Shown here in pieces: positions 286 through 43,706 of a stretch of 64,000 bases of DNA. Source of the stretch: an uncultured Planctomycetia bacterium (GTDB lineage: Bacteria > Omnitrophota > Gorgyraeia > Pluralincolimonadales > Pluralincolimonadaceae). The translations under genes and the position numbers were made by a program. The notes beneath the pieces are model-generated. The model did no database searches, had not been told where the DNA came from, and saw only the letters and a list, made by a program, of their open reading frames with translations. The stretch covers positions 12,304 to 76,303 of the forward strand of contig CAZYUB010000005.1 of the NCBI GenBank assembly GCA_964650515.1. The letters are read 5' to 3'. The first letter of the stretch is position 1. Every line of letters starts with the position of its first letter.

Positions 286-1215
286 ATGAGGTTTGTCACG
301 AAGAAGTACGAGAAGAACCCGATAATAACGAAAGAGGACATGCCTTACCCGTGCGAATGCGTCTACAATTCCGGCGCGGCGAAATACAACGGCAAGTATA
401 TACTGCTCCTGAGGGTATTGCTGCTCAACGGCAACTGCGTATTCGGCCTGGCCGAGAGCGACGACGGCTACAACTTCAGGATACATCCGAAACCGGTCAT
501 GGTCCCGGCGACTACCGGCCCGTTCGCGAGATATGAGGAGAAGGGCATCGAGGACCCGAGGGTCACGAAGCTCGGCGACACCTATTATATCTTCTACAGC
601 TGCTATTCCGGGCTCGGGATGAGGATAGGCCTCGCGAAGACGAAGGATTTCCGGAAGTTCGAGAGGATCGCGATGACCACGACGATCGATTACCGGAACT
701 CCGTACTCTTCCCCGAGAAGATAAAAGGGAAGTACTGCCGTTTCGAACGGCCTAACGTCGGGCGCCAGGGCATATGGATATCCTATTCGCCGGACCTGGT
801 ACACTGGGGCGAGCAGGAGCACATTATGGCCCCTTACGGCAACCATATATGGGAGGACCATAAGATCGGCGCGGGCGCGCCCCCGATAAAGACGAAGAAG
901 GGCTGGCTCAGCATCTACCACGGCGTCACATGGACGATGGACGGGATGACATACAGGCTCGGCGTCGCGATGCATGACCTGAAAGACCCGGCGAAAGTAC
1001 TGGGTATCGCCGACCAGTTCATACTGAGCCCCGACGAGGTCTTCGAGAGGGTCGGTTATGTCCATAACGTCGTCTTTACGTGCGGCGCGATACCGGAGCC
1101 GGACGGCACCGTCAAGATATACTACGGTGGCGCGGATACGGTAATGTGCGTCGCTACGGCAAAGATAGACGACCTGGTTGACATTGCGCTGAAGGGAAAG
1201 AGGAAGCCGCTATAA
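286..1215 (+). CDS. GH130-family glycoside phosphorylase-like protein (DUF377 / beta-1,4-mannooligosaccharide phosphorylase family).
   Basis: 309 aa. An AGGAGG RBS sits 8 nt upstream. It has the N-terminal NPIIT motif, GIEDPRVTKLGDTYYIFYS, and a beta-propeller-like repeat pattern with conserved Asp residues typical of GH130. Confidence 0.75.
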   Translation: MRFVTKKYEKNPIITKEDMPYPCECVYNSGAAKYNGKYILLLRVLLLNGNCVFGLAESDDGYNFRIHPKPVMVPATTGPFARYEEKGIEDPRVTKLGDTYYIFYSCYSGLGMRIGLAKTKDFRKFERIAMTTTIDYRNSVLFPEKIKGKYCRFERPNVGRQGIWISYSPDLVHWGEQEHIMAPYGNHIWEDHKIGAGAPPIKTKKGWLSIYHGVTWTMDGMTYRLGVAMHDLKDPAKVLGIADQFILSPDEVFERVGYVHNVVFTCGAIPEPDGTVKIYYGGADTVMCVATAKIDDLVDIALKGKRKPL

Positions 1216-1262
1216 AGAATTACCTCGGCATTGACATAGGCGGGACGAATATCCGTCTCGGG

Positions 1263-2096
1263 GTGGTCGACAGCCGCGGAAGGATGTTGACGAGGTACCA
1301 CATGCCGACGCTTAAGGAGCAGGGACGCCGAAAGGTGATATCGCGGCTTCTCGACGCAATAGGCGCTATATTATACGGTTCGGGCTATAAGGTCGGGGCG
1401 ATAGGGGTCGGCTGCCCCGGGCCTCTCGACAACAAAAGAGGGATCGTCCTTTCCCCGCCCAACCTTCCGGATTGGCGCGGAGTGCGCCTGAAGGAGACCA
1501 TCGAAAGGAGATTCCGCATCCCGGTGATCGTAGAGAACGACGCGAACTGCGCCGGCCTCGGCGAGGCGATAACCGGTGCTGGCCGCGGCGCCTCGAGCAT
1601 GGTCCTGCTGACGCTCGGGACCGGCATCGGCAGCGCGATAGTCCTCGACGGGAAGTTGTGGACAGGCAAAGGCGGGTTCGCCTCAGAGCTTGGCCACACC
1701 TCAATAGACGTCGACGGGCCGAAATGCGGCTGCGGTAACAGGGGATGCATAGAATTATACGCGTCTGCCACGGCTGTCGCGCGCCGCGGTAAAATGGAAG
1801 CGGAAAAGGTATTTCGCGCGGCTGCCAAAGGCAATAAGATCGCGCGCAAGGTAGTTGATGATACTGCGTATTACCTCGGCTGCGCGCTAGCGAACATAGT
1901 GAACGCGCTCGACCCGGAGGTGATAGTCCTCGCGGGAGGCATGGCGAAAGCCGGCCGAAGATTCATGGGCAAAGCAGAGAAAACAATGCGCGAAAGGGCT
2001 TTGAAAGAATCGTCAAGGGGAGTCAGGTTGGTTACCGCTAAACTCGGAGAAGACGCCGGACTGATCGGCGCCGCATGGAGGGCTAAGGGGCTATGA
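1263..2096 (+). CDS. ROK-family sugar kinase (glucokinase/fructokinase-like). The true start is probably upstream near 1218-1230, because the ROK N-terminal motif LGIDIGGTNIRLG is encoded in frame before the first ATG/GTG/TTG.
   Basis: It has the glycine-rich ATP-binding DIGGT motif and the ROK zinc motif CGCGNRGCIELYAS. See the finding on the missing canonical start. Confidence 0.8.
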   Translation: MVDSRGRMLTRYHMPTLKEQGRRKVISRLLDAIGAILYGSGYKVGAIGVGCPGPLDNKRGIVLSPPNLPDWRGVRLKETIERRFRIPVIVENDANCAGLGEAITGAGRGASSMVLLTLGTGIGSAIVLDGKLWTGKGGFASELGHTSIDVDGPKCGCGNRGCIELYASATAVARRGKMEAEKVFRAAAKGNKIARKVVDDTAYYLGCALANIVNALDPEVIVLAGGMAKAGRRFMGKAEKTMRERALKESSRGVRLVTAKLGEDAGLIGAAWRAKGL

Positions 2097-4924
2097 AGAG
2101 GATGCTGCTTTCGTTATTAACCGTATTTATGATCTCGCCGTGCTGGGCTTCGGGTACGGAAACCGTTCTCTGGGACGGGTTTGAGTCCAGGAACCTGTGG
2201 ACGATCGCCCCGTGGGGAGATGCCGCAAAGCTCACGGTTTCGGCAGAGAACAAGGTCGAGGGCCAGAAGTGTTTTAAGGTCAGTTTTGGCCCTGAAGGAA
2301 AACAGAATCCCCCTAAGGGCGTCGTTCTCGAGAGGGAACAATCTGCGATAGACCTTGATACATCAAAAAAGCTGACGGTCGATATATATAACGACGGCCC
2401 TCCGTTTGAGCTTGCCCTGGTCCTTTATACGGACGAATTCATCGAAAGCTCGACAACTACGGTCAAGAAGGGCCTTAATAAGGACATAGAGTTTGACCTT
2501 CACGCGAAGGACTTTAAATCGCCCAACAGCAAGTGGCAGTATAATTATACCCCGCATCCCGGGACAATCGCATGGCGGATCATGTTCATCATGTATGCGG
2601 AAGATACCGAAGCCAAGGCCAACGTATATTTTGACAATATGCGGCTGGAAAGAGCGCCGAGAATAACAAGCGAGCAGAAGGTAATAGCGCTGGCAGATTA
2701 CACCGCGCCGGATATCACGGCGGTGAAGCCCGCGGCCGACAAGGTCGAGCAGTACGAGAAGTTCGAGATAGACGTCGCGTTCGGGGGCACGTACCAGTAC
2801 CCTTATAACCCGGATAACATAGACCTGACGGCATATTTCAAGTCGCCGGACGGGAAGAAGTATACGATGCCCGGGTTCCTCTATTCGGGAAAGGTCGACG
2901 GCGTGAACATATCGGACGCCGCCTGGAAAGTAAGGTTCGCGCCGGTCAAGCCCGGAAAGTGGGAGTATTACGTCACGGTAAAGAACCCGAAAGGCACGGC
3001 CAAGTCGGAGACGATGTCTTTCGAGTGCACGACTCCCGCGTCGCCTAAAAGAGGATTTGCGCGCATAAGCAAGAAGGACCCGCTCTTCTTCGAGTTCGAG
3101 AACGGCGAATATTACTATCCGTTGGGACAGAATGTTGCGTGGGCCCCCTCAGTGGATATGTTCGAGCACTATTTCTCGAAGATGCACGACAATATGTATA
3201 ACTGGACGCGCGTATGGATGTCGAGCTGGCAGTGCGCGATAGAATGGCTCGACGTAGGCGAGTACCACGGGCTCAACAATTATAACCTTAAGAACGCGAA
3301 ACTCCTGGACGACATAACGGACCTCGCCAGGAAATATGACCTGTATTACCAGCTCGTGCTGAACCAGCACGGCCAGCTAAGCACAAAGATCGACCAGGAA
3401 TGGCTGAACAACCCGTATAACAAAAAGAACGGCGGGCCCTGCGAGAAACCGTCGGACTTCCTGACAAACGCCGAGGCGAAGAGACTCTACAAGATGCGCG
3501 TACGCTATATAATCGCGCGCTGGGGTTACTCGACGAACATCCTCGCGTGGGAGCCGTGGAACGAGCTGACGCTCATGGACGGCTACGACGCGAAGCTCGA
3601 CATCCCGTGGCAGAAGGAGATGGCGCAGTACATGAATTCGGTCGACCCGCACAGGCACATGATAACGACGAGCTATTTCGGAAACTTCCCGAAAGAGATA
3701 TGGAAACAGCCCGAGATAAGCTACGGCCAGATACACATGTATACCCCCGAGATAGTGACTACGCTGGACGGGCTTTCGGTAATGATGAAAGATTACAAGA
3801 AAGCGTATTTCGTCGGGGAATACGGCGGAAGCAATTTAAGCGGCATTGACATACAGGACCCGGACGCGACGGTGCACCATAACGGGATCTGGGCCGCATA
3901 CATGACAGATTCCTCGGGAAACGCAATGCCATGGCAATGGGATGAATACATCGATCCGAACAACCTGTATTTCCACTGGCATTCGCTCGCCAAATTCAAC
4001 GAGGGAGAAGACAGGCGCAGCCAGCACTATGGGTACAGCCGCGGCACGCTGGAGCTTGACGACGGCACGATACTGATGGCCCAGGGCATACTGAACAACA
4101 AGAAGGCGCTTATCTGGGTCTATGACCTCTACAGGACGAAGTTCAACCAGGGCGCGCTTAAACCTCTCCATATAAAAGGGGCCCTGTTGACGGTCGCTGG
4201 GATGGATAAAGGCGATTACAGGGTGGAGTTCTGGGACACGTATAAGGGGGAAATCACCGGGACCGCGCAGGCGTCAAGCAACGGGAAGAAGATGGAGATA
4301 GCGTTGCCCGAAATAACGAAGGACTTCGCGCTGAAAGTGATAAGCATGAATGATAAGGCGCGCCCGAAAGCATGCAAGGCGCGTATAGAATCCAAATACC
4401 TGAATAAGGAAGCCGCCGAAGAGCCGCGCGACCTCTGGGAAGGTTTCGAGGCCAAGGGTGATTGGGACTATGCCGGATGGGGAGACATAGTCAAGGTCTC
4501 TCTCGCGAAGGACAGGGTGACCGAAGGCAAGAGCGCGTTCAAGGTCGTCTTCGATAAGGCAGGCAGGAGGACCGACGGAAAGGGCATATGCGTCCAGAAC
4601 ACGAAACTGGACCTCGACCTCTCAAAGGCGAAGAAGATGGTCTTCGACGTATATCTTGACGCCCCGAACTCGATAGAGGTATCGGTAGTCCTCAACAGCA
4701 AGGGATTCTGTGAAAGCGTGCGCCGGATAATAGTACCCGGCTGGAACAGGAACATCACATTCGACCTCATGGCGAAGACCTTCAAGAAGGAGTCGACGAA
4801 GTGGCAGCATAAGGGCGAGATCGACAGGGCGGAGCCGATGAAAGAGGTCATGTTCATGTTCTATCCGTGGGATGTCGAGTCCGGAAGTTTCTACCTGGAT
4901 AATATCGGATTTCGCAACGATTAG
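2093..4924 (+). CDS. Secreted GH5-like (clan GH-A) endoglycanase with a related CBM-like jelly-roll module at both the N- and C-terminus.
   Basis: 943 aa with a signal peptide (MKRMLLSLLTVFMISPCWASG). It carries the catalytic acid/base motif NILAWEPWNE and the nucleophile motif YFVGEYGG. The N-terminal module (VLWDGFESRNLWTIAPWGD...VYFDNMRLE) and the C-terminal module (DLWEGFEAKGDWDYAGWGD...FYLDNIGF) are clearly homologous. Confidence 0.7.
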   Translation: MKRMLLSLLTVFMISPCWASGTETVLWDGFESRNLWTIAPWGDAAKLTVSAENKVEGQKCFKVSFGPEGKQNPPKGVVLEREQSAIDLDTSKKLTVDIYNDGPPFELALVLYTDEFIESSTTTVKKGLNKDIEFDLHAKDFKSPNSKWQYNYTPHPGTIAWRIMFIMYAEDTEAKANVYFDNMRLERAPRITSEQKVIALADYTAPDITAVKPAADKVEQYEKFEIDVAFGGTYQYPYNPDNIDLTAYFKSPDGKKYTMPGFLYSGKVDGVNISDAAWKVRFAPVKPGKWEYYVTVKNPKGTAKSETMSFECTTPASPKRGFARISKKDPLFFEFENGEYYYPLGQNVAWAPSVDMFEHYFSKMHDNMYNWTRVWMSSWQCAIEWLDVGEYHGLNNYNLKNAKLLDDITDLARKYDLYYQLVLNQHGQLSTKIDQEWLNNPYNKKNGGPCEKPSDFLTNAEAKRLYKMRVRYIIARWGYSTNILAWEPWNELTLMDGYDAKLDIPWQKEMAQYMNSVDPHRHMITTSYFGNFPKEIWKQPEISYGQIHMYTPEIVTTLDGLSVMMKDYKKAYFVGEYGGSNLSGIDIQDPDATVHHNGIWAAYMTDSSGNAMPWQWDEYIDPNNLYFHWHSLAKFNEGEDRRSQHYGYSRGTLELDDGTILMAQGILNNKKALIWVYDLYRTKFNQGALKPLHIKGALLTVAGMDKGDYRVEFWDTYKGEITGTAQASSNGKKMEIALPEITKDFALKVISMNDKARPKACKARIESKYLNKEAAEEPRDLWEGFEAKGDWDYAGWGDIVKVSLAKDRVTEGKSAFKVVFDKAGRRTDGKGICVQNTKLDLDLSKAKKMVFDVYLDAPNSIEVSVVLNSKGFCESVRRIIVPGWNRNITFDLMAKTFKKESTKWQHKGEIDRAEPMKEVMFMFYPWDVESGSFYLDNIGFRND

Positions 4925-5138
4925 GGATATAGACGGAGAAACGCAAGGATTTCCCATAAAATAGCAACAATGTCATCTTGACAAAGGAACCTGAAAATGG
5001 TATATTTTCCCCGAAATAGTTATACCAGAGTATACTTGCCTTGTTCTCTAGTTAATTAGTAGCATTATGTCTGTACATCTCTGTTTTCATTAACTTAGTA
5101 TACTCGGATATACTAAACAAGGGAAAGGGGGTAGCAGG
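4925..5138 (+). other. AT-rich (about 35% GC) intergenic/leader region. It holds two copies of the palindromic 8-mer AGTATACT (5029-5036, 5097-5104) and a related GATATACT (5107-5114).
   Basis: Read directly from the sequence. The composition stands out against a 60% GC background. Confidence 0.5.
4978..5006 (+). promoter_or_regulatory. Sigma70-type promoter: TTGACA, a 17-nt spacer, then TATATT.
   Basis: TTGACA lies at 4978-4983 and TATATT at 5001-5006. They sit inside a 214-bp AT-rich intergenic region, about 130 nt upstream of the PEP-CTERM gene at 5139. Confidence 0.5.
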
Positions 5139-5768
5139 ATGGTAAAGATGCTCATGGTAATGGCGGTCATGGCTATGGTGCTGTGCCTTAACACCGCGGC
5201 GCATGCTACGGTCCAGTTCGATTTCGCTGCTGATACGCAAGGTTGGGCGGGCGAGGATTGGGGTTCGGGGCTTCCTGCTTTACAGCAGGTTTCGTGGTCC
5301 AAGGATCCCGCAACGGGGAGCCTCGAAGCAAGCACTTCAACCATGACGTATACGCGCGCTGACGGCTCCAACTGGGGCAAAGTATACCTTAAAAGTGATT
5401 TTTCCGCTTCGAAGAACCTGTCCGCAGAACCTCTCTACACGATGGATTTCTACGCTCCCGATAACATCTACTACGCGAAGGCAAAGCTCGGGGTAAGGAC
5501 AGGCGGCTCCTGGGACCTGACCGAATCGAGCGAGATAAGCTTAAATCCCGGCTGGAACACCCTCGTATGGGATATGAGCGGCGCCTCCAACCTTGCCGAC
5601 GCGAGACAGCTTGGCATCGAAGTGTCTGGATGGCTGCCGGTCACCGGCGATGCGAAATGGAATATCGATAACGTTGCGACAAATCCCGTCCCTGAGCCGT
5701 CGAGCATGCTGCTTCTCGGCGCGGGCCTCGCGGGAATATTCGGAGCAAGGAAGAGATCCTCGAAGTGA
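5139..5768 (+). CDS. PEP-CTERM-anchored secreted protein with an N-terminal CBM-like domain.
   Basis: 209 aa with a signal peptide. The C-terminus PVPEPSSMLLLGAGLAGIFGARKRSSK is a PEP motif followed by a TM helix and a basic tail. The N-terminus begins ATVQFDFAADTQGWAGEDWG. A GGGGG-type RBS lies upstream. Confidence 0.8.
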   Translation: MVKMLMVMAVMAMVLCLNTAAHATVQFDFAADTQGWAGEDWGSGLPALQQVSWSKDPATGSLEASTSTMTYTRADGSNWGKVYLKSDFSASKNLSAEPLYTMDFYAPDNIYYAKAKLGVRTGGSWDLTESSEISLNPGWNTLVWDMSGASNLADARQLGIEVSGWLPVTGDAKWNIDNVATNPVPEPSSMLLLGAGLAGIFGARKRSSK

Positions 5769-5798
5769 CTTTAAAATACCAAAAAGGGAGGAGGTGAA

Positions 5799-6464
5799 AT
5801 GATTATGATGAAGCGTATCCTCATTATTGCAGCTGTGTTATTGCTCGGTAATCCGGCGTTCGGCGCGACCCTGTATGACTTCGAATCGGGCACCGACGGC
5901 TGGACATTCCAGGATTATACCGACAGCCAGGCAATTTCCGCTGTCGCGCAGTCCTCGGCCCAGGCAAAATCCGGTTCTTACTCGTTGATGGGAACAGCGC
6001 ATCTCGTACCGGGCGACGCCAATTACAGCAAGGGCGAAGTACTGGTCAACAGGGGCGCGGCGAACACGTTGAACCTTAACGGGCTCCAGACGTCGGTATC
6101 CGTATTCGGACCTACGGGAGCGGCGGGAACCAACCCTTCGTCCCCCAACGGATGGCAGGTGTTCTTCAAAGACGCGAACTGGTTGTCATGGTACGGCCCG
6201 TGGACGAACATGACGGTCAACACATGGCAGACATTGTCAGTGACGCCCGGCGTGACGACCCCGGCATTCGTCGATTCCGGCTTCGACCCGACCCAGATAA
6301 TGGTCATGGGAGTGAAGCTCGGCACCGGCGGGGCCTCTACCGGCACCTATGACGGCGCGGTATACGTGGACCAGGTTAGCGTGGTCCCGGAGCCCGCAAG
6401 CATGCTTCTTCTCGGCAGCGGTTTGGTAGGCATCCTTGGTTTCGCGAGAAGGAAGAAGGCTTAA
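5799..6464 (+). CDS. PEP-CTERM-anchored secreted protein with an N-terminal CBM-like domain.
   Basis: 221 aa with a signal peptide. The C-terminus is VVPEPASMLLLGSGLVGILGFARRKKA. The N-terminus begins ATLYDFESGTDGWTFQDY. A GGAGGAGG RBS lies upstream. Confidence 0.8.
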   Translation: MIMMKRILIIAAVLLLGNPAFGATLYDFESGTDGWTFQDYTDSQAISAVAQSSAQAKSGSYSLMGTAHLVPGDANYSKGEVLVNRGAANTLNLNGLQTSVSVFGPTGAAGTNPSSPNGWQVFFKDANWLSWYGPWTNMTVNTWQTLSVTPGVTTPAFVDSGFDPTQIMVMGVKLGTGGASTGTYDGAVYVDQVSVVPEPASMLLLGSGLVGILGFARRKKA

Positions 6465-6516
6465 CAGGCAGTACAAACAAGGCGAGTATAAAAATGGCAA
6501 AGGGGGTATTAAAGCT

Positions 6517-8892
6517 ATGAGGAAAGTCGAAAAAGGCTTGCTCCCTCACCCGAAAATAGCTTTAATCACCCCCTTTGGCATTCCTCCACAGCGCCAGGGC
6601 GTGGCGCTTATAATGACGGTCGGCATCCTCGCGCTCATAACGCTCCTCGGCACGTCCTTCGCGATAAATATGTCCGCAGATTATAAAGGCGCCAGGAACT
6701 CCATCCAGGCCGTAAAGGCAAGGTACCTGGCGGAAGCCGGTATAAACAGGGCGGTCGCGGAGCTGCTCTACGGGGCGGAAGGTTTTACGAGCGACGCAAT
6801 CGATTCCTCGACGGAAGCATGGTCCGGGGCAAACCCGTATTCGGCGAATATAGGAAGCGACAACAGCGGGTATACCGTGACCGCAATATCCGATTGCGCG
6901 GGGCGCATCTTCATAAACGACATGAACCCGAACCTCAGGAACATGCTCGGCAGCCTTGCCGCGGCATGCGGGCTCGCGGCAGCCGACGGGCAGGCAATAT
7001 TCGACAACCGCCCGATAGGGGGGTATTCATCCGTCGAGGAGATAAAGACGGTCCCCGGCTTTACCCAGGTAAAATACGATGCGATATCCGATTCCATTAC
7101 TATCCACGCATATGTCGATCCTGATGTGTCGGCCGCAGCGCACCCGTATTCCGCGTCCCCGAGGGCGCCGGTCAACGTCAATACGGCCGGCAGGGAAGTC
7201 CTTATAGCGGTGCTCGGAGGAGTAAGCAACGGCGCAAACACCATCACATCCGCGGAAGCGGCATCGCTCGCGGACCACCTGATAAACGGCAGGCCTTATT
7301 CCACATACGACCAATTATTGGCGCGGCTGCTGACCGCTGAGACACTCGGTTATATATCGGACGGGGACGCGGCCGTCGCGATGGCCAACGCGAACCCGAA
7401 CACGGACATGATGTCCCTTAACCCGAATTATTCCTGGCGGTATAAACACGTATCAAAGGGGAATCCGAATGATGTCTCGGGATACGATGCCAACGGCCTC
7501 CCGTATGCCGTCGACAAGACATCGCTTTCAGCATATACGACGGAGTTTTCGTTCAACTCCGGCGGTTATTACGAGATAGAATCGGCCGGCATTGCCAGGA
7601 ACGCCGCAGGAATGCAGAATGCGGTAAAGAGGGTCAAGGCCTGCGTCAAGACCTTTGATATATGGCGTCAGACAACCCAGGCGCAGTTCGCGCTCGGGAT
7701 CCCGGCCAACACAGAGCTTTATCCTGAGCCGCCGGCGGTCGCCGCCGCGGCTTATGACGGCCAGGTGATGATATCGAGGATGCGCTCAACCACGCCTGCG
7801 GCTGGCGTCCCGCATTTCCTGCACAAGATGGACGGCCTGGACGCGGACAGCGCAGGCGGGAGCGCGGCAAGGACCAGTTTCGCATGGGTCCCCCTTAACC
7901 CGAACCTCGCAAGCGTGATAGACGCCGCCGATCCCGGCAACGTATTCCCCGACGGGCTCTTCTTCCCGAGGGACGACGCGACTACGAACTACTGGTTCAG
8001 GCCGGAGGGCAACATCGATTCCGCGGACGGCACGCTCGAGATATGGTTCAAGCCGAACTGGCAGTACCACTACGCGACCTTCAACAACGCGTGGCATTCC
8101 GCGAAGGTCTTCGAGGCGCAGGATAGGGGCACCGGGGGCGGCGGGTCGAACTGGGGCAACGCCTCTATGGATATCTATATTGCCGCCGACGACGACACGA
8201 TCCGCTGGAGGATAAACAACAAGAACGGCACGCAGTACACGATGCAGGCGGCGATGCCGAACACCTGGAAGCCGGGTACATGGCACCACATAGCGATAAC
8301 GTGGGATTACGAGGATTTCCTGAACGACCCCGCGCGCGCCCAGACGTTCTATATCGACGGCGCGAGCGTCATGTCATGGAACATAAAGGACGCGCCGAAA
8401 CAGTTCCTCGGGGATAACGGCCTCGAGTTCGGCTGCGATACGCCGTACCAGGAGCCGCCGAACGCGACTTACGGGGAGGTAAGGATATTCGCGTCAAGCG
8501 GCGCGACATCTCCCGGCATGGATTACGCGGCCGGGGTATATTACGATGTAGGCGACGCGGAGTTCCTGTCTTCCGCGAATACGCTCGGCACAGTCAGGTT
8601 AGGGACTCTGTCATGGACCGAGCATACGGCGGATGCCGCGGGAAACCCGGTCGTCCCGGGCGCCGACCTGACGTTCGACATATTCGACGGCGCGGCATGG
8701 CTCGGCAACAGCGCGGGCAGGTCGAACCCGGCGGGCAACCCGCTCGACGCGGTGACCGGAGGCGCGGGCGCGGTCCGATACAGGGCGTATTTCATCGAGA
8801 CAGGCAGCGGCCTCTTCGATACCCCTGTCCTCGACGACGTGACGATAACGTATTTCAGCAGGGCCGAGATGCTTTATTGGAGGGAGTTGTAG
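6517..8892 (+). CDS. GspK-like type II secretion / pseudopilin-family protein fused to a large C-terminal extension containing a LamG (concanavalin A-like lectin) domain.
   Basis: The N-terminus has a GspK-like hydrophobic segment (QRQGVALIMTVGILALITLLG) and two helix-hairpin-helix motifs characteristic of GspK (APVNVNTAGREVLIAVLGG and GGYSSVEEIKTVPGFTQVKYDAI). The C-terminal half has LamG-like segments (LEIWFKPNWQYHYATFNNAWH...WHHIAITWDYED...FYIDGASV). The start was taken at the ATG at 6517, which has an AGGGGG RBS. The ORF track starts at 6436, and an in-frame GTG at 6601 is also possible. Confidence 0.55.
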   Translation: MRKVEKGLLPHPKIALITPFGIPPQRQGVALIMTVGILALITLLGTSFAINMSADYKGARNSIQAVKARYLAEAGINRAVAELLYGAEGFTSDAIDSSTEAWSGANPYSANIGSDNSGYTVTAISDCAGRIFINDMNPNLRNMLGSLAAACGLAAADGQAIFDNRPIGGYSSVEEIKTVPGFTQVKYDAISDSITIHAYVDPDVSAAAHPYSASPRAPVNVNTAGREVLIAVLGGVSNGANTITSAEAASLADHLINGRPYSTYDQLLARLLTAETLGYISDGDAAVAMANANPNTDMMSLNPNYSWRYKHVSKGNPNDVSGYDANGLPYAVDKTSLSAYTTEFSFNSGGYYEIESAGIARNAAGMQNAVKRVKACVKTFDIWRQTTQAQFALGIPANTELYPEPPAVAAAAYDGQVMISRMRSTTPAAGVPHFLHKMDGLDADSAGGSAARTSFAWVPLNPNLASVIDAADPGNVFPDGLFFPRDDATTNYWFRPEGNIDSADGTLEIWFKPNWQYHYATFNNAWHSAKVFEAQDRGTGGGGSNWGNASMDIYIAADDDTIRWRINNKNGTQYTMQAAMPNTWKPGTWHHIAITWDYEDFLNDPARAQTFYIDGASVMSWNIKDAPKQFLGDNGLEFGCDTPYQEPPNATYGEVRIFASSGATSPGMDYAAGVYYDVGDAEFLSSANTLGTVRLGTLSWTEHTADAAGNPVVPGADLTFDIFDGAAWLGNSAGRSNPAGNPLDAVTGGAGAVRYRAYFIETGSGLFDTPVLDDVTITYFSRAEMLYWREL

Positions 8893-9783
8893 ATGAAACG
8901 CGCTCTCATATTATACATGGCGGTATTTTTCGCCTGTGCCTGCTTTCCGGCAGCGGCGGATGTGATAACTATCGGCACCGCGCGCGATACCGAGCTGAAG
9001 GCGGAGGGCTACGGCAGGGCCGCCTCGTCGAAATACGAGCTAAACGTAACCGCCCAGGCGAAACGGCTCGCGAACGGCGACGCGGTGCTGGTCAAATACA
9101 AGACGAACCTGCCCCGGATGACGGTGCTGTATATGTCGGTCCGCTCGCTAGACCAGGTGCTAGTCACGCGCAAACAGACGGTCGAAGGCCCCGAGTTCGC
9201 GATAAGGTTCGGGCCGTTCGACAACAAGAAATTCACGCCGGGCATTTACGTGGTCGAGGTATCGTGCATCCCCGAAAGGCAGGAGAGCGGCGCGGTCAAG
9301 AAGGAGCTCTCCGGCACGGACAAGCTTGTCGCTACGGCAGAACTCAGGATCGGGAACCAGGAGGATTTCGAGGTCACGACCGGCAAACGCAAGGCCGCGC
9401 TGGTAGCGGAGCTCAAAGAACTCGACTCGCTCTACTTCGCGATGAACGATGAATACGCTTTGCAGAAAAAGGAATTCAATAAGGCGAGATGGGACGCGTT
9501 CTCGGAGGATCTCCTCCTGCGCGTGAAGAAGATAGGGGATCTCGACGCGGACTACCGTTCGAAGATGCTCGTCATGGATTACGCGGCCCAGGAGAACATC
9601 AAGATGATGATAGTCGATACGCTCGGCAAGCTCCGGATACGCTATACGGAACAGCTCTGCAAGGACAACGGCGTGGAATTCAGCGCTCCGCCGTCGCCCG
9701 ACAACAGGCCGGCGGATATGCTTAACAAGGTGATGCAGGAACTTCTCGTCAATTCGCTTGACTTTTACTCGACAGGAAATTAA
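8893..9783 (+). CDS. Secreted hypothetical protein with a signal peptide and a coiled-coil-rich C-terminal half.
   Basis: 296 aa. Its ATG abuts the stop of the upstream gene (TAGATG), which suggests translational coupling. I recognise no family. Confidence 0.45.
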   Translation: MKRALILYMAVFFACACFPAAADVITIGTARDTELKAEGYGRAASSKYELNVTAQAKRLANGDAVLVKYKTNLPRMTVLYMSVRSLDQVLVTRKQTVEGPEFAIRFGPFDNKKFTPGIYVVEVSCIPERQESGAVKKELSGTDKLVATAELRIGNQEDFEVTTGKRKAALVAELKELDSLYFAMNDEYALQKKEFNKARWDAFSEDLLLRVKKIGDLDADYRSKMLVMDYAAQENIKMMIVDTLGKLRIRYTEQLCKDNGVEFSAPPSPDNRPADMLNKVMQELLVNSLDFYSTGN

Positions 9784-9792
9784 TATGAAACC

Positions 9793-11037
9793 ATGCGCGG
9801 CCACAAGACCGTAAAAATAACAGGGTGCCTTCTTTTGCCTTTGGCGGCCCTCCTCATGATCTGCCTCCCGGGCTGCGCGAAAAAGACCGGTGAAAAAGAG
9901 ATACTGATGTGGCTCGTCGGCTCGGAGAAGCAGGCCCAGAAGATAACCGAGCTCGGGCTTGATTTCTACAGGGAGACCGGCGTCAAAGTCAGCTGCGAGG
10001 CGATCTCGTGGGGCGAAGCGCACTCTAAATACCTGACCTCCGTCGTCGGTGAGGTGACCCCGGACATCGGCACGATGGGCCTGACGTGGGGGACCGAGTT
10101 CGGCAGCCTGGGCGCGATGGTCGACCTGCGCAAAGAATACCCGGAAGATCTTGAGCGGATATCGAAGAACATATTCCCGGGGCTGGCCGAATCTATCCGC
10201 TTCAACGACAGCGTCTTCGCGGTCCCGTTCGACATGAGCGAATACATAATGTTCTACAGGTCCGACCTGATAAAATCGCCGCCGCGGACGTGGAAAGAGC
10301 TGACATCGCTGCTATCGGAACTTAACGCTTCCGGGAAGTCGATGATAATCGATTGGGGCGGGCTCGGATGGATAGGTTATTGCCCTTACCTCTGGCAGAA
10401 CGGCGGGGATTTCTATAATAAGGACAGGACCTCTGCGACGCTCGATACCGAAGAAGCCGCGGCCGCGATGAGATTCTTCACCGACCTTTACAAGAAATAC
10501 CAGGTGCCCCTCGAGAACAAGCCGGTCGAACAGAGCTTCAGGGTAGGCGACCACCCAATATTCATATCCGGGAACTGGAAGATGAAGAGCCTCACGGATG
10601 TCGCGCCGGAACTCGACGGGAAATGGGCCATAGCGCCGCTTCCCGCCGGGCCGACCGGAAAGCGCACGGGCTTCATCGGCGGAAGGGTCATGGGGATATT
10701 CTCGATGTCGAAGCTGAAGGACGAGTCGTGGGAGTTCATCAAATACCTCTCAAGGGCGGATATACAGGTGAAGCTTTACGAAGCTACGCTCGAATCGCAC
10801 GACACGTACCTGCCCCCGAACATGAAGACGTGGGATACCATGCCAATGGACGCGTCCTTCAAGGGCCCGCTGAAAGATCAGGCGATGGATTCCAAGGGCC
10901 CGCCGTCGGTGCTCGGATGGGATGACAGCACGAGGTTCATAGATACCGCGATACAGCTTATAGTGCTCAAGGGCAGGGACGTGAAGGCGGCCCTTGCCGA
11001 AGCGGACAGGGAACTCGACAGCAGGAGGAAGCATTGA
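9793..11037 (+). CDS. Extracellular solute-binding lipoprotein of a carbohydrate ABC transporter (CUT1 family).
   Basis: The lipobox LPGCAKK follows a signal peptide. The 414-aa protein fits the family-1 binding-protein pattern and is followed directly by two permease genes. Confidence 0.75.
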   Translation: MRGHKTVKITGCLLLPLAALLMICLPGCAKKTGEKEILMWLVGSEKQAQKITELGLDFYRETGVKVSCEAISWGEAHSKYLTSVVGEVTPDIGTMGLTWGTEFGSLGAMVDLRKEYPEDLERISKNIFPGLAESIRFNDSVFAVPFDMSEYIMFYRSDLIKSPPRTWKELTSLLSELNASGKSMIIDWGGLGWIGYCPYLWQNGGDFYNKDRTSATLDTEEAAAAMRFFTDLYKKYQVPLENKPVEQSFRVGDHPIFISGNWKMKSLTDVAPELDGKWAIAPLPAGPTGKRTGFIGGRVMGIFSMSKLKDESWEFIKYLSRADIQVKLYEATLESHDTYLPPNMKTWDTMPMDASFKGPLKDQAMDSKGPPSVLGWDDSTRFIDTAIQLIVLKGRDVKAALAEADRELDSRRKH

Positions 11038-11936
11038 ACCGCGTCCTTAAGGAGATCAACAAGCAGAAGCCGGCGTATTTGTTCATAGCGCCGTCGTTTT
11101 TGCTCTTCACGGTCTTCCTTATCATACCGGTCTTCGCGTCGCTCTACTGGAGCTTTACGGAGTACAATATACTTCAGCCGCCGAAGTTCGTCGGGTTCCA
11201 GAACTACGCGAATATACTCTTCCATGACCCGCGGTTCTGGAAGGCGATGACAAATACGGCCATATTCGTCGTCGGCACGGTGCCGACGAGCATTGCAATA
11301 TCCCTGCTTCTCGCGATGGCGATAGACCAGAATATAAGGTTCAAGAACTGGTTCAAGACGTTCTTCTTTATACCGAGCATCACATCCATAATAGCGGTGT
11401 CCGTCATCTGGAAATGGCTTTACGCGAGCGGAAAATACGGGCTCTTCAACCACTTCCTGTCATCAGTAGGCATCCCGCCGGTCAACTGGCTCGGCGTCGA
11501 CTGGACGCTGCCGTCCATAATACTGATGAGCGTTTGGGGCGGGCTCGGGTATAACATGATTCTCTTCATCGCGGGCCTGCAGGGCATCCCGCAGGTCTTC
11601 TACGAGGCCGCGGAGGTCGACGGCGCGAGCGATTGGGACAAGTTCAGGAACGTGACACTGCCGCTCCTGAGGCCGACGATGCTCTTCGTCACGATAATGT
11701 CGGTAATAAGCGCGTTCCAGGTCTTCGAGCAGGTCTATATAATGACATATAACTCGGAAGGCGCGGTGGGAGGGACCCTCGACTGCGCGCTCACGATAGT
11801 CGCTTACCTTTACGAGACCGGGTTCCAGAGGTTCGCGATGGGGTACGCGTCGGCGCTGGCATACCTTATCTTTTTCGTGCTCTTCATAGTCACTATAATC
11901 AACATGAAGATAGTCGAAAAGAAGATAGAGTACTGA
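11034..11936 (+). CDS. Carbohydrate ABC transporter permease (MalF/UgpA-like).
   Basis: Six predicted TM segments. The EAA loop reads EAAEVDGASDWDKFRNVTLPLLRP. Confidence 0.85.
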   Translation: MNRVLKEINKQKPAYLFIAPSFLLFTVFLIIPVFASLYWSFTEYNILQPPKFVGFQNYANILFHDPRFWKAMTNTAIFVVGTVPTSIAISLLLAMAIDQNIRFKNWFKTFFFIPSITSIIAVSVIWKWLYASGKYGLFNHFLSSVGIPPVNWLGVDWTLPSIILMSVWGGLGYNMILFIAGLQGIPQVFYEAAEVDGASDWDKFRNVTLPLLRPTMLFVTIMSVISAFQVFEQVYIMTYNSEGAVGGTLDCALTIVAYLYETGFQRFAMGYASALAYLIFFVLFIVTIINMKIVEKKIEY

Positions 11937-11937
11937 T

Positions 11938-12819
11938 ATGGACATTAAAGAGATAAAGAGGTTCAACGGGGAAGAGGCGAGGCCTTCAAGCAAGGCGAGG
12001 CAGCAACGGCTGCTTAAGACATTCGTATACATATTCCTCGCAATAGGGTCTTTCATAATGGTGGTCCCGTTCGTCTGGATGGTCGTGACCTCGTTCAAGC
12101 CGCTCGACGAGATAAACACATACCCGCCGAGCTTCTTCATCAGGAAACCGACGTTCGCGGCCTACATCGAGCTGTTCAGCATAATACCGATGGGCAGGTA
12201 TTTCATGAACAGCCTCATAGTGACGTCCTCGATAACGCTCGCGAACATATTCTTCTGCTCGCTGGCCGGATACGCTTTCGCGAAACACCGTTTCTTCGGC
12301 CGCGACAAGCTCTTCCTGCTGCTGGTCGGCTCGATGATGATACCGTGGCAGGTCAACCTGATACCCAGTTTCGTAATAATCAAGAAGTTCGGCTGGCTCA
12401 ACTCGTTCTACGGCCTGATAATACCGGCGATGTCGGGCGCTTTCGGCATATTCCTCATGAGGCAGTTCATAATGAACATCCCGGACGACCTTATCGACGC
12501 CGCGAAGATAGACGGATGCAGCGAATTCACGATATACAGGAGGGTCATACTGCCGCTGATACAGCCGGCGCTCGCCTCCCTGGCGATATTCACGTTCATG
12601 GGCCAGTGGAACAACTTCGTATGGCCGCTCGTGGTCATATATTCGTCGAAGATGAGGACAATACCGCTCGCGCTCTCCGTCCTGAACGGGCAATTCGGCA
12701 CAAATTTCGCGATGGTAATGGCGGGGGCGGTCATAGCGACGCTTCCGGTCCTCATAGTGTTCATAGCGTTCCAGAAGTACTTCATAAAAGGCATAGCCCT
12801 GACAGGCCTGAAGGCCTAG
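11938..12819 (+). CDS. Carbohydrate ABC transporter permease (MalG/UgpE-like).
   Basis: The EAA loop reads DAAKIDGCSEFTIYRRVILPLIQP. It is polytopic. Confidence 0.85.
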   Translation: MDIKEIKRFNGEEARPSSKARQQRLLKTFVYIFLAIGSFIMVVPFVWMVVTSFKPLDEINTYPPSFFIRKPTFAAYIELFSIIPMGRYFMNSLIVTSSITLANIFFCSLAGYAFAKHRFFGRDKLFLLLVGSMMIPWQVNLIPSFVIIKKFGWLNSFYGLIIPAMSGAFGIFLMRQFIMNIPDDLIDAAKIDGCSEFTIYRRVILPLIQPALASLAIFTFMGQWNNFVWPLVVIYSSKMRTIPLALSVLNGQFGTNFAMVMAGAVIATLPVLIVFIAFQKYFIKGIALTGLKA

Positions 12820-12842: not shown

Positions 12843-12886
12843 CTGTTACCGATAACATTGACAAATCCCGGTTCATCGTGTAAACT
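12843..12886 (+). promoter_or_regulatory. LacI-type palindromic operator CTGTTACCGATAACAT (12843-12858) overlapping a sigma70-type promoter (TTGACA at 12858-12863, 17-nt spacer, TAAACT at 12881-12886).
   Basis: Read from the sequence. The reverse complement of this 16-mer occurs upstream of the second LacI gene at 21505-21520. Confidence 0.5.
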
Positions 12887-12907: not shown

Positions 12908-13933
12908 ATGAAACGTTTCGAAAAATCCAGCATAACGATAAAAGACATAGCCAAAAAGGCGGGCGTCGCGCACTCTACGGTCTCTCTTGTTATGAACGAC
13001 CGCGAACACGTGTCGCCGAAGCTGCGCGAGAAGATCTTAAAGATCGCGAACGAGATGGGCTATATGCCCAACATGGTCGCGCGCAGCCTCATCAGCAAGA
13101 AATCCTCCACGGTCGGCGTCGTATTCCCCGAGAACCCGCACTTCTTCACGATAACGTACTTCCTTATGATAATAGAGGGCATCCAGAACGCCTGCAAGAA
13201 GTACAACCGAGCGCTTATGTTCTTCTCGCTCGACCAGACGAAAGGCGAGTCGTATTACCAGATATCCCGCAAATGGCTGATAGACCTGATGATAATAATG
13301 AACGTCGACTACACGAGGGACATCTCAAAAGATATCCAGGACCTGCGCGATAACGGCATATACTTCTCGTTCCTGACGAAATACCTCGGCAAGGAGAAGG
13401 TCAATTCGGTCTGCGTCGATAACTACGAAGGCGTGCGGCTCGCTCTCGAATATTTGGCCTCGCAAGGCCACAAACGGATCGGTTTCATCGCCGGCAACCC
13501 GAACTCGGCGGACGGCCCGGAGAGGTTCCAGGCATATAAGTCGCTCTCGAAGAAATTCGGGTTCGACCAGGACGAAGATCTCATAGCGCAGGGCGATTTC
13601 ACTTTCGAAAGCGGCGAGCGCGAGATGCCGAAACTCCTCGGCCTCAAGAAACGCCCGACGGCGGTCTTCGCCGCGAGCGATTACATGGCGATAGGCGCGA
13701 TGCGCGTGATAAAGGAGCAGGGCCTCTCGATACCTAAAGATATCGCCGTCATGGGGTTCGACAATACGCTCGAAGCCGCGTACGTAGAGCCGGCCCTTAC
13801 GACGGTAAGGCAGCCGCTGCAGGAGATGGGGGAGAAGGCCGTCGACCTCGCGATACGCTCTATGAACGACGAGAATTTTGAACCACAGACGCTTGCCATC
13901 AAACCGGAACTCATAAAGAGACAATCATGCTAA
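12908..13933 (+). CDS. LacI-family transcriptional regulator.
   Basis: The N-terminal HTH reads ITIKDIAKKAGVAHSTVSLVMN. A periplasmic-binding-protein-like sugar-binding fold follows. 341 aa. Confidence 0.85.
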   Translation: MKRFEKSSITIKDIAKKAGVAHSTVSLVMNDREHVSPKLREKILKIANEMGYMPNMVARSLISKKSSTVGVVFPENPHFFTITYFLMIIEGIQNACKKYNRALMFFSLDQTKGESYYQISRKWLIDLMIIMNVDYTRDISKDIQDLRDNGIYFSFLTKYLGKEKVNSVCVDNYEGVRLALEYLASQGHKRIGFIAGNPNSADGPERFQAYKSLSKKFGFDQDEDLIAQGDFTFESGEREMPKLLGLKKRPTAVFAASDYMAIGAMRVIKEQGLSIPKDIAVMGFDNTLEAAYVEPALTTVRQPLQEMGEKAVDLAIRSMNDENFEPQTLAIKPELIKRQSC

Positions 13934-19458: not shown

Positions 19459-19486
19459 ACCGATAATAAAACAGGAGGTGGTCAGA

Positions 19487-20425: not shown

Positions 20426-20506
20426 GGGCGGCGTAAAGATTGCCGGGAGTGCGGAAGGATTGATCAGGGAATCCTTCCGCACGAACGTGCGAGAAAGGAC
20501 GGGAGG

Positions 20507-35830: not shown

Positions 35831-36088
35831 ATGAAAAAGGCGATCGCTTTAACGGCCGCGATGGCGGTGATGGCGTTATCGGGTTGCGATAAAGCGGGTT
35901 CATGGGTCGATGAACAGCAGTCCGCCGTGGATAAAAGCGTCCAGGGCCGCATGGAGACGGTCAATATAGAAGCGCTCGGCGCGGTCGGGCAGAACAGCAC
36001 CGCAGTACGCAGGAGCGTAGACAAGGTCCTTGACGCTAACGACGCGAGAAACAGCGGTTTAGAGGCTATTACAGAGAAGATAAAATGA
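35831..36088 (+). CDS. Small lipoprotein (hypothetical).
   Basis: 85 aa. A lipobox-like LSGCDK follows a signal peptide. Confidence 0.4.
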   Translation: MKKAIALTAAMAVMALSGCDKAGSWVDEQQSAVDKSVQGRMETVNIEALGAVGQNSTAVRRSVDKVLDANDARNSGLEAITEKIK

Positions 36089-43169: not shown

Positions 43170-43244
43170 TTTAGGTTCTCCTTTGGGGAAATTTAAGGTA
43201 TTATAACAGGAAACGGGATGCCGGGCAACTCCCAATTTCAGGTA

Positions 43245-43270: not shown

Positions 43271-43290
43271 ACAGGTAAAAGGAGGAAGTC

Positions 43291-43695: not shown

Positions 43696-43706
43696 CGGGA
43701 AGACCA

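Follow-up and report, generated by a model that had tools for sequence, protein, structure and literature searches.

In type IV filaments, the K subunit caps the H-I-J-K priming complex, and a missing Glu at mature position +5 is a hallmark of this capping subunit. Tip complexes of the type II secretion system (T2SS) contact substrates, and the classical Pul T2SS is part of a sugar (maltose) regulon. Modular minor pilins are found in the type IV pili of Streptococcus sanguinis, in which PilC has a glycan-binding, concanavalin A (ConA)-like lectin module, placed at the pilus tip by modelling (PMC9934059), and PilB has a vWA module (PMC9934059, PMC8179133). CofB and TcpB are type IVb tip pilins with the secreted partners CofJ and TcpF, respectively, and the lectin-fold domain of CofB, located at the pilus tip, binds and exports the operon-encoded CofJ rather than binding a glycan (PMC6048534). 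Cellulose use by Cytophaga hutchinsonii is reported to require a T2SS (PMC5553014). Planctomycetes bear glycan (dextran)-binding fibres that are unexplained (PMC5394234). According to a 2026 preprint, its Omnitrophota genome collection is without canonical TonB-dependent/Sus-type import systems, and two papers on Omnitrophota mention T2SS-like loci next to giant genes only. A prior description was not found in the literature on Omnitrophota and pseudopilins, or on GspK and polysaccharide utilisation.

Here, we describe a gene at positions 6517-8892 of a 64-kb stretch of Omnitrophota DNA (the window). Its product is best read, from sequence, as a K-type (GspK/PilX-class) minor pilin with an added LamG-like module and C-terminal beta-sandwich. 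We propose with moderate confidence that it would serve a type IV pilus-like fibre, built by machinery encoded elsewhere, as a cap subunit that is specific to its locus and probably binds glycans.

Architecture of the K-type protein and its partner

The gene, the modules of its product and the adjoining partner gene are as follows.

6517..8892, + strand, stop codon included: predicted K-type (GspK/PilX-class) modular minor pilin, 791 aa
6517..6771, + strand: leader (aa 1-27, ending RQG) and hydrophobic alpha1 helix (aa 28-85), from motif, model and HMMs
6772..7731, + strand: GspK-like body (aa 86-330) with two HhH-type motifs, and small beta domain (aa 331-405)
7951..8502, + strand: LamG/ConA-like jelly roll (aa 479-662), the fastest-diverging module
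8503..8889, + strand: conserved C-terminal beta-sandwich (aa 663-791), end ...PVLDDVTITY...LYWREL, from model and alignment
8893..9783, + strand: partner protein, 296 aa, with Sec signal peptide, beta-sandwich (aa 37-153) and four-helix bundle (aa 156-293)

Positions 6517-8892 translate without a stop into 791 aa, with an AAGGGGG Shine-Dalgarno motif 10 nt upstream of the ATG at 6517, and an identical copy of the product is on record in NCBI. The N-terminus (...PPQRQG/VALIMTVGILALITLLG, the slash marking the putative cleavage site) is prepilin-like (RQG/VALIM) and resembles a class III signal peptide in its basic leader, Gly at -1 and hydrophobic alpha1 helix; the leader, at 27 aa, exceeds the usual length in type IVa or T2SS pilins. 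Across 35 homologues the motif [KR]-x-G/[VIT]-A-L-I is kept, and Glu at +5 occurs in none of them (0/35), this position being M, L, I or V in every aligned sequence. Matches to the PilX_N and GspK N-terminal HMMs cover aa 27-105, and in the AF2 model of the protein (pLDDT 81, pTM 0.80) aa 24-85 form a helix. GspK/XcpX can be superposed on the predicted N-terminal domain, with a GspK-type fold match that spans 218-234 residues and includes the HhH-type motifs (about aa 152-195, and RAPVNVNTAGREVL at about aa 216-235). As modelled, the domain shows the pilin fold of the crystal structures 3CI0 and 5VTM, into which a large helical segment is inserted.

Pfam T2SSK reached 25.5 bits against a cut-off of 24.2 over the whole protein, a marginal match in which no single stretch passes alone, and Pfam PilX_N remained under its cut-off at 19.7 bits. 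NCBIfam T2SS_GspK (NF037980; E 1.5e-9) gave 37.8 bits, far below the equivalog cut-off of 130, and the Verru_Chthon cassette protein A model (TIGR02600) matched aa 28-83 only, with 20.2 bits against 332.3. HHH_3 was sub-threshold (16.6 bits against a cut-off of 27, E 0.0088), and a family sequence profile searched against the PDB matched ComEA 8dfk_A (E 0.002) and GspK (E 0.02) weakly. An earlier note on this DNA had proposed GspK hallmarks for the N-terminal region, and the proposal holds: the T2SSK match exists, although it is marginal, and the predicted fold and the synteny of paralogues, described below, support it strongly.

The LamG-like domain proposed in the same note is solid. Pfam Laminin_G_3 aligns with aa 489-659 (E 5.3e-11; 43.3 bits, over the cut-off of 27.6) and the model has a jelly-roll fold; HMM and model together place a pilin moiety and a grafted ConA-like module on one polypeptide. 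Beyond this module, beta strands run across aa 682-790 of the model, and the C-terminal 40-110 aa align with paralogues that have an unrelated middle region. The N-terminal ~390 aa are conserved, as is the C-terminus; the middle is replaced and is the most variable part, and paralogues have PA14, CBM_4_9 or LamG modules. Conservation within the LamG module is confined to structural core residues (W584, G587, W589, G615, G639), and no conserved sugar-binding residues were identified in it. A LamG fold is no proof of carbohydrate binding, and glycan binding at a pilus tip is put forward here as a deduction; the quick divergence of the module could stem from relaxed constraint instead of shifting specificity.

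The TAG stop of the K-type gene is followed directly by the ATG of the partner gene (gagttgTAGATGaaa), in agreement with the proposed translational coupling (TAGATG) to a secreted protein. The partner has a plain Sec signal peptide, without a lipobox or sorting signal, and matched no family in Pfam or NCBIfam. In its AF2 model (pLDDT 85.7), the four-helix bundle resembles periplasmic sensor or chemoreceptor ligand-binding domains, generically only. A partner homologue directly follows the K-type gene in 28/47 cases, and, judged from gene order, the secreted partner is a conserved companion of the K-type family rather than an incidental neighbour. It is not universal, since an iterated partner HMM left out the small proteins of 216-265 aa encoded downstream of class-D K genes, as well as the TPR protein that follows K in locus L043.

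A predicted operon in a mannan locus

The surroundings of the pair agree with those given in the earlier note, two PEP-CTERM proteins lying upstream of the K-type gene and, past the partner, a solute-binding protein (SBP) and two permeases downstream.

286..4924, + strand: upstream enzymes (Pfam), a GH130 mannoside phosphorylase, a ROK-family protein (probably a sugar kinase) and a 943-aa DUF5060 protein
4978..5006, + strand: promoter-like site, TTGACA, 17-nt spacer, TATATT and TG extension, 11/12 consensus positions
5017..5040, + strand: invariant block just 3' of the -10 element, with operator-like palindrome TATACcagaGTATA (5021-5034)
5097..5115, + strand: second operator-like site, AGTATACTcggATATACTA, just 5' of the ribosome-binding site
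5139..5768, + strand: PEP-CTERM protein with Mann_GBD-type CBM-like domain, 209 aa, first gene of the predicted operon
5799..6464, + strand: second PEP-CTERM CBM-like protein, 221 aa (Pfam)
9793..12819, + strand: sugar ABC importer (Pfam), SBP 9793-11037, permeases 11034-11936 and 11938-12819
12908..13933, + strand: LacI-family regulator (Pfam LacI and Peripla_BP_3) with its own promoter-like site at 12858-12886
13927..18507, + strand: 1526-aa GH2 enzyme with Big_7 and SLH-like Glucodextran_C module (Pfam), probably at the cell surface

Both the -35 and -10 elements are invariant among 9 orthologous loci (alignment A4), as is the 5017..5040 block, whose flanks vary. The sequence AGTATACT occurs twice in the 64 kb, both times within this leader, where the TATACnnnnGTATA sites are candidate twin operators. 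Paired GTATAC sites, 67-68 bp apart, lie upstream of the first PEP-CTERM gene in 10/10 class-A loci, the window included. These palindromes were identified by sequence reading and alignment; an automatic inverted-repeat search of the leader found nothing.

Pfam assignments were clear for the 209-aa protein (PEP-CTERM E 2.4e-8, Mann_GBD_bact E 4.2e-8), while the 221-aa protein matched PEP-CTERM (E 1.1e-7) and, under the cut-off, Mann_GBD_bact (E 2.1e-4). The importer genes matched SBP_bac_1 (E 6e-32) and BPD_transp_1 (E 1e-15 and 9e-21), with gaps of 9, -4 and 1 nt for the SBP and the two permease genes. A scan of the + strand found no terminator-like site between 5006 and 12819. Co-transcription of the two PEP-CTERM CBM-like genes, the K-type gene, the partner and the sugar ABC importer as one operon is predicted because of the tight spacing, the strong conserved promoter, the twin operator-like sites and the lack of a terminator-like site as far as 12819. 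The orthologous locus L001 also has GH113, GH5_mannosidase and CBM9. Since BamA, Skp, LpxD and LpxC are encoded in the window, the cell should be diderm and would therefore require a surface-reaching device.

Related genes and competing readings

When every other sizeable ORF of the 64 kb was scanned with Pfam, none proved to be a T2SS or type IV pilus gene, as the earlier note had stated, and the focal copy does not stand in the K slot after gspH-I-J (or fimU-pilV-pilW) of a pilus/T2SS cluster. Neither does the window contain a paralogue, apart from a weak LamG similarity at 36.6 kb, which is due to a separate 294-aa LamG protein. The description of the gene as "lone" is thus apt within the 64 kb and fails family-wide, the family being multi-copy with other members that follow gspH-I-J-like genes. 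Because the window is without an I/J-like pilin, prepilin peptidase, ATPase or secretin, the pilus machinery was deduced from related genomes.

This family is large and unnamed (939 cluster representatives at E <= 1e-30), and related Omnitrophota genomes have at least 5-7 K-type paralogues; ten distant representatives, taken from MAGs or nameless entries, yielded no cultured planctomycete host. One cluster-member fragment is named "DNA uptake protein ComE-like" by JGI. For the related loci, both gene calling and labelling were crude. In L005 and L024-L028, paralogues with 30-38% identity stand immediately behind gspH/I/J-like genes, in the K slot, and the slot is held in pilus/T2SS-type clusters by the paralogues of L005, L024-28, L035-38, L043, L068 and L076. 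Other paralogues lie within operons of pilB/gspE, pilC/gspF, G-H-I-J-like pilin, K and pilM genes, which have PilT in L043, are without PilT in L076 and have PilM-PilN and a secretin in L021. Among the related Omnitrophota genomes are pilB-pilT-pilC-G-H-I-J-K-pilM operons. In Auribacterota, K and partner directly follow G-H-I-J-like genes, and they also occur in H-I-J-K operons.

A second setting is catabolic. Among the K-type genes of Omnitrophota-type loci, 25/47 lie amid genes for GHs, CBMs, ABC components and regulators, the nearest pilus gene, if any, being more than 6 genes away, a count that is no unbiased frequency since the survey comprised the 76 loci most similar to the query. At least three types of sugar locus have a K gene (mannan GH130/GH113/GH2; beta-glucan types GH94/GH9/CBM30 and GH26-CBM9/GH94), which is usually accompanied by the partner, and genome JBAZJG01 has three such sugar loci as well as a core pilus operon (L007, L023, L030, L076). 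K-type genes are syntenic with pilin or sugar genes and in no case with competence genes.

Under the cap reading, the focal protein would be transcribed with the two PEP-CTERM CBM-like surface proteins, the secreted partner and the sugar ABC importer from the regulated promoter of the beta-mannan locus. On induction of the locus, its alpha1 helix would insert it in the inner membrane, where prepilin peptidase would probably cut it at RQG/V. It would join GspI/J-like minor pilins encoded elsewhere and cap the pilus or pseudopilus of a pilB/pilT/pilC/pilM/secretin machine, likewise encoded elsewhere. Shown at the fibre tip, the lectin-like module could bind the polysaccharide of the locus, directly or via the partner, and the bound substrate would be tethered or reeled in to the surface enzymes and importer. 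The analysis itself covers the architecture, the predicted fold, the distribution of the family, synteny and the operon-like gene order; we infer the tip location, processing, glycan binding, partner role and retraction. Several sugar loci of the related genomes each have one such cap, mostly with a partner, and we therefore propose that the caps are interchangeable heads, specific to their substrates, of one shared machine.

The nature of the machine bears on a different, in our view unlikely, function, in which the K paralogue caps a short T2SS-style pseudopilus and its variable module recognises exoproteins of the locus and pushes them through the secretin. Each locus would then bring a cargo-specific piston head, the cargo being large GH2 or DUF5060 enzymes, the PEP-CTERM CBM proteins or the partner. 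A GspK-like scaffold would suit such a role, as would the secreted partner whose start abuts the stop of the K-type gene, the large, probably exported enzymes with cell-surface modules in the locus, the substrate contacts of T2SS tips, the place of Pul in the maltose regulon, the export of CofJ by CofB and the T2SS-dependent cellulose use of C. hutchinsonii. In the relatives, however, the cognate machinery has PilT, PilM/N and a secretin and resembles a type IVa pilus of the retractile kind, not a classical T2SS, and the variable modules belong to carbohydrate-binding types (LamG, CBM_4_9, PA14) instead of being established receptors for cargo. We know of no cargo-recognition signal that might be tested.

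The gene lies away from any pilus gene and ahead of those for the SBP and the permeases, a position that would also be compatible with a protein that never enters a filament, its alpha1 helix acting as a signal anchor while LamG module and partner hold oligosaccharides in the periplasm for the ABC importer. The unusually long leader and the partner's plain Sec signal peptide and sensor-like four-helix bundle, the latter a generic likeness only, fit this arrangement. We nevertheless think it improbable: the G-1 motif and the GspK scaffold, which would be expected to be lost from a mere anchor, are kept whole at 30-40% identity and shared with operon-encoded K proteins, K and partner directly follow G-H-I-J-like genes in Auribacterota and occur in H-I-J-K operons, and the importer already has its own SBP. 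A ComEA-like DNA-uptake or DNA-binding protein, which the earlier note had named as a reading that would overturn its own, is very hard to sustain and was rejected, given that the weak HhH matches (HHH_3 E 0.0088; 8dfk_A E 0.002 with the family profile; TIGR01259 E 0.057, 13.4 bits against 152) and the JGI label are set against scores far under every ComEA/HhH cut-off, HhH motifs that belong to the GspK-type fold, and the synteny described above.

The cap reading can be extended, tentatively, to a general arrangement in which each sugar locus of Omnitrophota, and possibly of related PVC bacteria, may have its own regulated K cap, with a substrate-specific lectin-like module, and partner that retarget one shared retractile pilus-like machine to the glycan at hand, the polymer being captured and reeled to the surface or through the secretin for the enzymes and ABC importer of the locus. 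If true, cells without TonB-dependent Sus systems would have in their pili a counterpart of the SusC/D paradigm, and the glycan-binding fibres of Planctomycetes would gain a molecular candidate. It would explain how Omnitrophota, whose uncultured cells are small and diderm, capture and import polysaccharides, and swapping the capping subunit under substrate control would give one type IV filament machine many specificities. The K-type and partner genes would together serve as a practical genomic marker of sugar-utilisation loci in Omnitrophota, and they add a large unnamed protein family and a conserved partner family without known relatives.

Comparison with known systems

Closest to the focal protein are the K subunits of the H-I-J-K tip complex, GspK/XcpX of the T2SS and PilX of type IVa pili, which share the Gly-1 prepilin-like N-terminus without Glu5 and a gene position, seen in the focal paralogues, directly after H-, I- and J-like pilin genes. 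The focal protein differs in being 2.5-3 times larger, with the LamG module and C-terminal beta-sandwich added, in scoring well under the GspK equivalog cut-off, and in the location of this copy apart from pilus genes in a sugar operon, with several paralogues per genome.

Like PilC and PilB of S. sanguinis, it has a pilin moiety with a grafted adhesive module and a proposed tip location, with an I-like pilin as nucleator. This likeness is drawn from the literature only, and PilC has a short pilin moiety that is not a GspK-type scaffold, belongs to the pil locus of a monoderm host-associated bacterium, and is neither multiplied per genome nor linked to catabolic loci. CofB and TcpB are likewise large tip minor pilins with a lectin-fold domain, and their operon-encoded secreted proteins parallel the abutting partner gene. 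They differ in their H-type lectin, trimeric initiator, lack of a GspK scaffold, virulence context and unrelated partner families.

The Verru_Chthon cassette A-D (NCBIfam TIGR02600, TIGR02596/98/99) of the PVC group similarly has a very large protein A beside three prepilin-type proteins. The focal protein weakly matches A, and the H/I/J-like proteins of L005 weakly match D/B/C, respectively, although every score is far under its cut-off (20 bits against 332 for A) and the cassette is itself uncharacterised; we are aware of no description that links it to sugar loci. SusD and the surface glycan-binding proteins of Bacteroidota polysaccharide utilisation loci offer a functional analogy only, that of a locus-specific, fast-evolving, non-catalytic binder found once per locus beside a transporter. 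PEP-CTERM CBM-like proteins of the relatives weakly match SGBP_B_XBD. There is no homology with SusD, and here the importer is of the ABC type rather than a TonB-dependent SusC, and the binding module is carried on a pilin scaffold. We regard the focal protein as a variant of the known modular minor pilins.

Identity and architecture of the focal protein

The open reading frame at 6517-8892 (+ strand) comprises 791 uninterrupted codons, has a ribosome-binding site (AAGGGGG) 10 nt 5' of its ATG, and encodes a product identical to a 791-aa protein in a public NCBI record. Close orthologues are publicly named 'hypothetical', 'LamG-like jellyroll' or 'ComE-like', and three orthologue records of 759 aa (MDD5270676.1, MBP6943852.1 and MFA5164524.1) start at Met33 (window counterpart 6517-6615), which cuts off the leader and the Gly-1 motif, the most informative pilin mark. 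The 791-aa form is considered real because most homologues have Leu at position 33 and the protein sequence ahead of Met33 is conserved. Its N-terminus consists of a basic leader with Gly at -1 (PPQRQG) and a hydrophobic helix (VALIMTVGILALITLLG), and Glu at +5 occurs in none of the 35 aligned homologues. A missing Glu5 is the established signature of the K subunit that caps type IV filaments (restated in PMC9934059).

Family-model matches of the focal protein, with model cut-offs
aa 489-659: Pfam Laminin_G_3, E 5.3e-11, 43.3 bits (cut-off 27.6)
N-terminus: NCBIfam T2SS_GspK, E 1.5e-9, 37.8 bits (cut-off 130)
Focal protein: Pfam T2SSK, 25.5 bits (cut-off 24.2), no single stretch passing
Focal protein: Pfam PilX_N, 19.7 bits (cut-off 25.5)
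Focal protein: Pfam HHH_3, 16.6 bits (cut-off 27)

An AlphaFold2 model, for which 35 homologues served as input (pLDDT 81, pTM 0.80), has a long helix (aa 24-85), an alpha/beta and helical region to ~aa 310, a small beta domain, a jelly roll (~aa 480-660) and a C-terminal beta-sandwich. An earlier note had claimed a GspK-like N-terminus, helix-hairpin-helix (HhH) motifs of the GspK type and a LamG-like segment. All three were borne out: the first by the Gly-1/no-Glu5 motif, a marginal T2SSK score and the GspK-type fold, the second by the location of the motifs within that fold, and the third by the Laminin_G_3 match and the modelled jelly roll. The focal protein is very probably a K-type minor pilin, and it retains all that defines a K subunit.

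The K family, its loci and the partner protein

Across species-representative genomes 205 relatives were found, and 76 loci were kept and labelled using our own ORF calls, HMMs for K and for the partner (the secreted protein encoded directly 3' of the focal gene), the prepilin motif and similarity to Pfam-annotated reference genes. Nearly all homologues belong to metagenome-assembled genomes (MAGs) of Candidatus Omnitrophota, and the Omnitrophota loci sort into five recurring classes.

Recurring classes of K-type loci (L numbers denote loci in other genomes)
Class A, the window's type: DUF5060, one or two PEP-CTERM CBM-like proteins, K (~800 aa), partner (~290-360 aa), SBP, two permeases, LacI, GH2; order kept down to 45% identity
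Class B: K (~830 aa), partner, CBM30 PEP-CTERM protein, GntR-type regulator, GH94, CBM protein, GH9
Class C, stand-alone minor-pilin operon (L005 3171-17281; also L024, L025, L026, L028): GspH-like (151 aa), GspI-like (123 aa) and GspJ-like (237 aa) prepilins, directly followed by K (964 aa, PA14), partner, partner, K (1041 aa, weak LamG), partner, K (1027 aa, CBM_4_9); housekeeping genes 3' (EF-G, ruvCAB)
Class D: CBM11 PEP-CTERM protein, K (~730 aa; Pfam T2SSK 30.4 bits), small secreted protein, GH26-CBM9, CBM30, GntR, GH94
Core operon L043 237-15446: two PilB/GspE ATPases (one with an MshE-type c-di-GMP-binding N-terminus), a PilT/PilU ATPase (TIGR01420, 426 bits against 319), PilC/GspF, seven pilin genes (three G-, two H-, one I- and one J-like), K (812 aa), TPR protein, PilM
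Core operon L021: K, PilM-PilN fusion, secretin
Core operon L076: GspE-, GspF- and GspG-like genes, two further prepilin-type genes (one GspI-like), K (503 aa), PilM-like gene

By gene content, the class C operon is a set of three putative alternative caps behind a single H-I-J set. PilZ-domain genes are present in a sugar locus (L006) too. Several classes occur within one genome. JBAZJG01, which carries a 92% orthologue of the focal protein, has L007 (A), L023 (B), L030 (D) and L076 (core), and JBAYMW01 has L008 (A), L018 (B), L028 (C, three K), L033 (D) and L082 (core), giving seven K-type genes, whereas the stretches seen contain no more than about two H-I-J sets. In a sample of 47 K-type genes that is biased to relatives of the query and labelled by similarity, 25 have carbohydrate genes around them and no pilus gene up to six genes away, 19 adjoin pilus genes, 3 belong to neither group, and 28 are followed by a partner gene. 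The earlier note's description of the gene as lone stands for the 64 kb, but relatives' genomes hold multiple K paralogues, some of them in pilus operons; the other K-lectin fusions and pilin clusters that it proposed to look for both exist there.

The scaffold is constant and the head variable. In BLAST with the focal query, the N-terminal ~390 aa are 25-40% identical to paralogues, including core-operon K proteins, and the last 40-110 aa are likewise conserved; K proteins of class C, class D and the core operons have a middle that either is replaced or cannot be aligned. Among sequences that can be aligned, divergence is fastest in the LamG region and in the linker preceding it (36-42% identity for these regions, 38-41% for LamG itself, where scaffold modules are 60-72% identical), and paralogues differ in carrying LamG, PA14 or CBM_4_9 heads (Pfam).

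The window's partner (8893-9783, 296 aa) has a Sec-type signal peptide with no conserved lipobox cysteine and matched no family in Pfam or NCBIfam. Its homologues are restricted to the same kinds of genomes as the K family. Many have an extra ~60-aa N-terminal domain (D-x-V-x-L-K-N-G-R-x-L-E-G-E-I...), including those at L001 12431-13510 and L005 7717-8733 and 13130-14197 and many of the homologues P0081-P0088; the window's protein and its closest relatives do not have it. K-partner pairs also occur in Planctomycetota MAGs and, in Auribacterota (L035, L036), after G-G-H-I-J-like genes. When 1.84 billion cluster representatives were scanned in full with HMMER, 939 K-family proteins passed E <= 1e-30 and 2,902 passed E <= 1e-10, and none of ten distant representatives checked was tied to a named cultured host.

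The predicted operon and its genomic setting

Features of the window
0.3-28.6 kb: beta-mannan/galactoside-type utilisation region (GH130, ROK-family protein, DUF5060, two PEP-CTERM CBM-like proteins, ABC importer, two LacI regulators, GH2, three SLH-like Glucodextran_C proteins, GH149-like protein, GH35); housekeeping genes beyond
4978-5006: near-consensus promoter-like site
5021-5034: palindrome-like candidate operator, TATACcagaGTATA
5098-5113: palindrome-like candidate operator, GTATACtcggATATAC
18523-21466 (+): three tandem paralogues (311, 327 and 319 aa) made of the SLH-like Glucodextran_C binding module; the 1526-aa GH2 enzyme just 5' has a C-terminal module of the same type
22555-25854 (+): 1099-aa protein, weak GH149-like match (96.9 bits against 1150), candidate PEP-CTERM-like C-terminus by simple pattern alone
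36085-36969 (+): 294-aa protein, signal peptide with lipobox-like LGSGC, Laminin_G_3 E 2.3e-14; the sole other LamG protein in the window, surrounded by housekeeping genes
41742-44156 (-): 804-aa SurA_N and Rotamase_2 peptidyl-prolyl isomerase, no pilus gene adjoining
58097-63422 (+): clustered BamA (five POTRA domains), Skp/OmpH, LpxD and LpxC-FabZ fusion

From 5139 to 12819 the intergenic gaps are 30, 52, 0, 9, -4 and 1 nt; the focal stop codon abuts the partner's start codon (TAGATG), and the flanking PEP-CTERM (5') and sugar ABC importer (3') genes are as the earlier note described. A terminator scan found no + strand terminator-like site between the promoter and 12819. The two leader palindromes (within 4978-5115) are GTATAC-centred and lie 68 bp apart, 3' of the promoter, and AGTATACT has two copies in the whole 64 kb, both in this leader. 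The -35, the -10 and both palindromes are invariant in nine orthologous loci, with variable flanking bases, and loci of classes B and D also have GTATAC sites, 5' of K, PEP-CTERM or GH genes. Together, these features support regulated co-transcription of the predicted cap, partner, CBM-like surface proteins and importer. All other sizeable ORFs of the window were scanned and no pilus or T2SS gene was found, in agreement with the earlier note. Since BamA, Skp, LpxD and LpxC-FabZ are encoded here, the cell has an LPS-containing outer membrane. In Omnitrophota, a conserved Rotamase_2 isomerase is reported to adjoin T2SS-like loci of giant genes (10.1101/2023.11.21.568195).

Proposed function and comparison with known systems

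The focal protein is best read as a locus-specific cap subunit of a type IV pilus-like filament, because K traits are kept, relatives occupy K slots, the fast-evolving module has a carbohydrate-binding fold, and predicted expression is with one polysaccharide's uptake system; as a whole mechanism, we judge the chances roughly even. The protein would assemble with I/J-like pilins encoded elsewhere and be exposed at the filament tip, where the LamG module may bind glycan, and the filament would retract. For these uncultured organisms, we infer the functional steps on the basis of sequence, synteny and predicted structure. The lectin-tipped pilus proposed earlier is upheld in its K identity and LamG module, while tip placement and glycan binding stay conditional. 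It is unlikely, though with precedent in CofB exporting CofJ (PMC6048534), that the protein is instead a cargo-specific piston head of a T2SS, export of the partner included. Somewhat less likely again is a membrane-anchored periplasmic binding protein that acts independently of any filament. A ComEA-like DNA-binding protein, the refuting alternative of the earlier note, was rejected as highly improbable, with ComEA models far below threshold and the HhH motifs part of the GspK-type fold.

The observation that began this analysis is confirmed, and its interpretation as a pseudopilin tip protein with a lectin domain is supported and extended at the level of a predicted function. To a pilus or T2SS specialist, K caps encoded in substrate loci are unexpected, and the idea is open to direct test. 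Several K caps per genome, the presence of K caps and a dedicated partner within different regulated polysaccharide-utilisation loci beside ABC importers and PEP-CTERM CBM-like proteins, and the partner family all appear to be undescribed; the literature searched gave no earlier description of multiple K caps per genome, K caps in such loci or the partner family. Papers on Omnitrophota mention T2SS-like loci solely beside giant genes.

A GspK scaffold with LamG is not new in kind, because minor pilins with grafted adhesive modules are already established. PilC of S. sanguinis binds glycans, carries a ConA-like lectin module and, in a model, sits at the tip beside an I-like pilin (PMC9934059), and the secreted protein CofJ is anchored by the lectin-fold tip domain of ETEC CofB (PMC6048534). 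Weak matches of K-family loci to Verru_Chthon cassette proteins A-D, themselves uncharacterised, suggest that the arrangement may be part of a broader PVC-group theme. In Planctomycetes, pili-like fibres bind dextran and have a suspected role in macromolecule uptake (PMC5394234); among planctomycetes, K-family relatives were found in MAGs.
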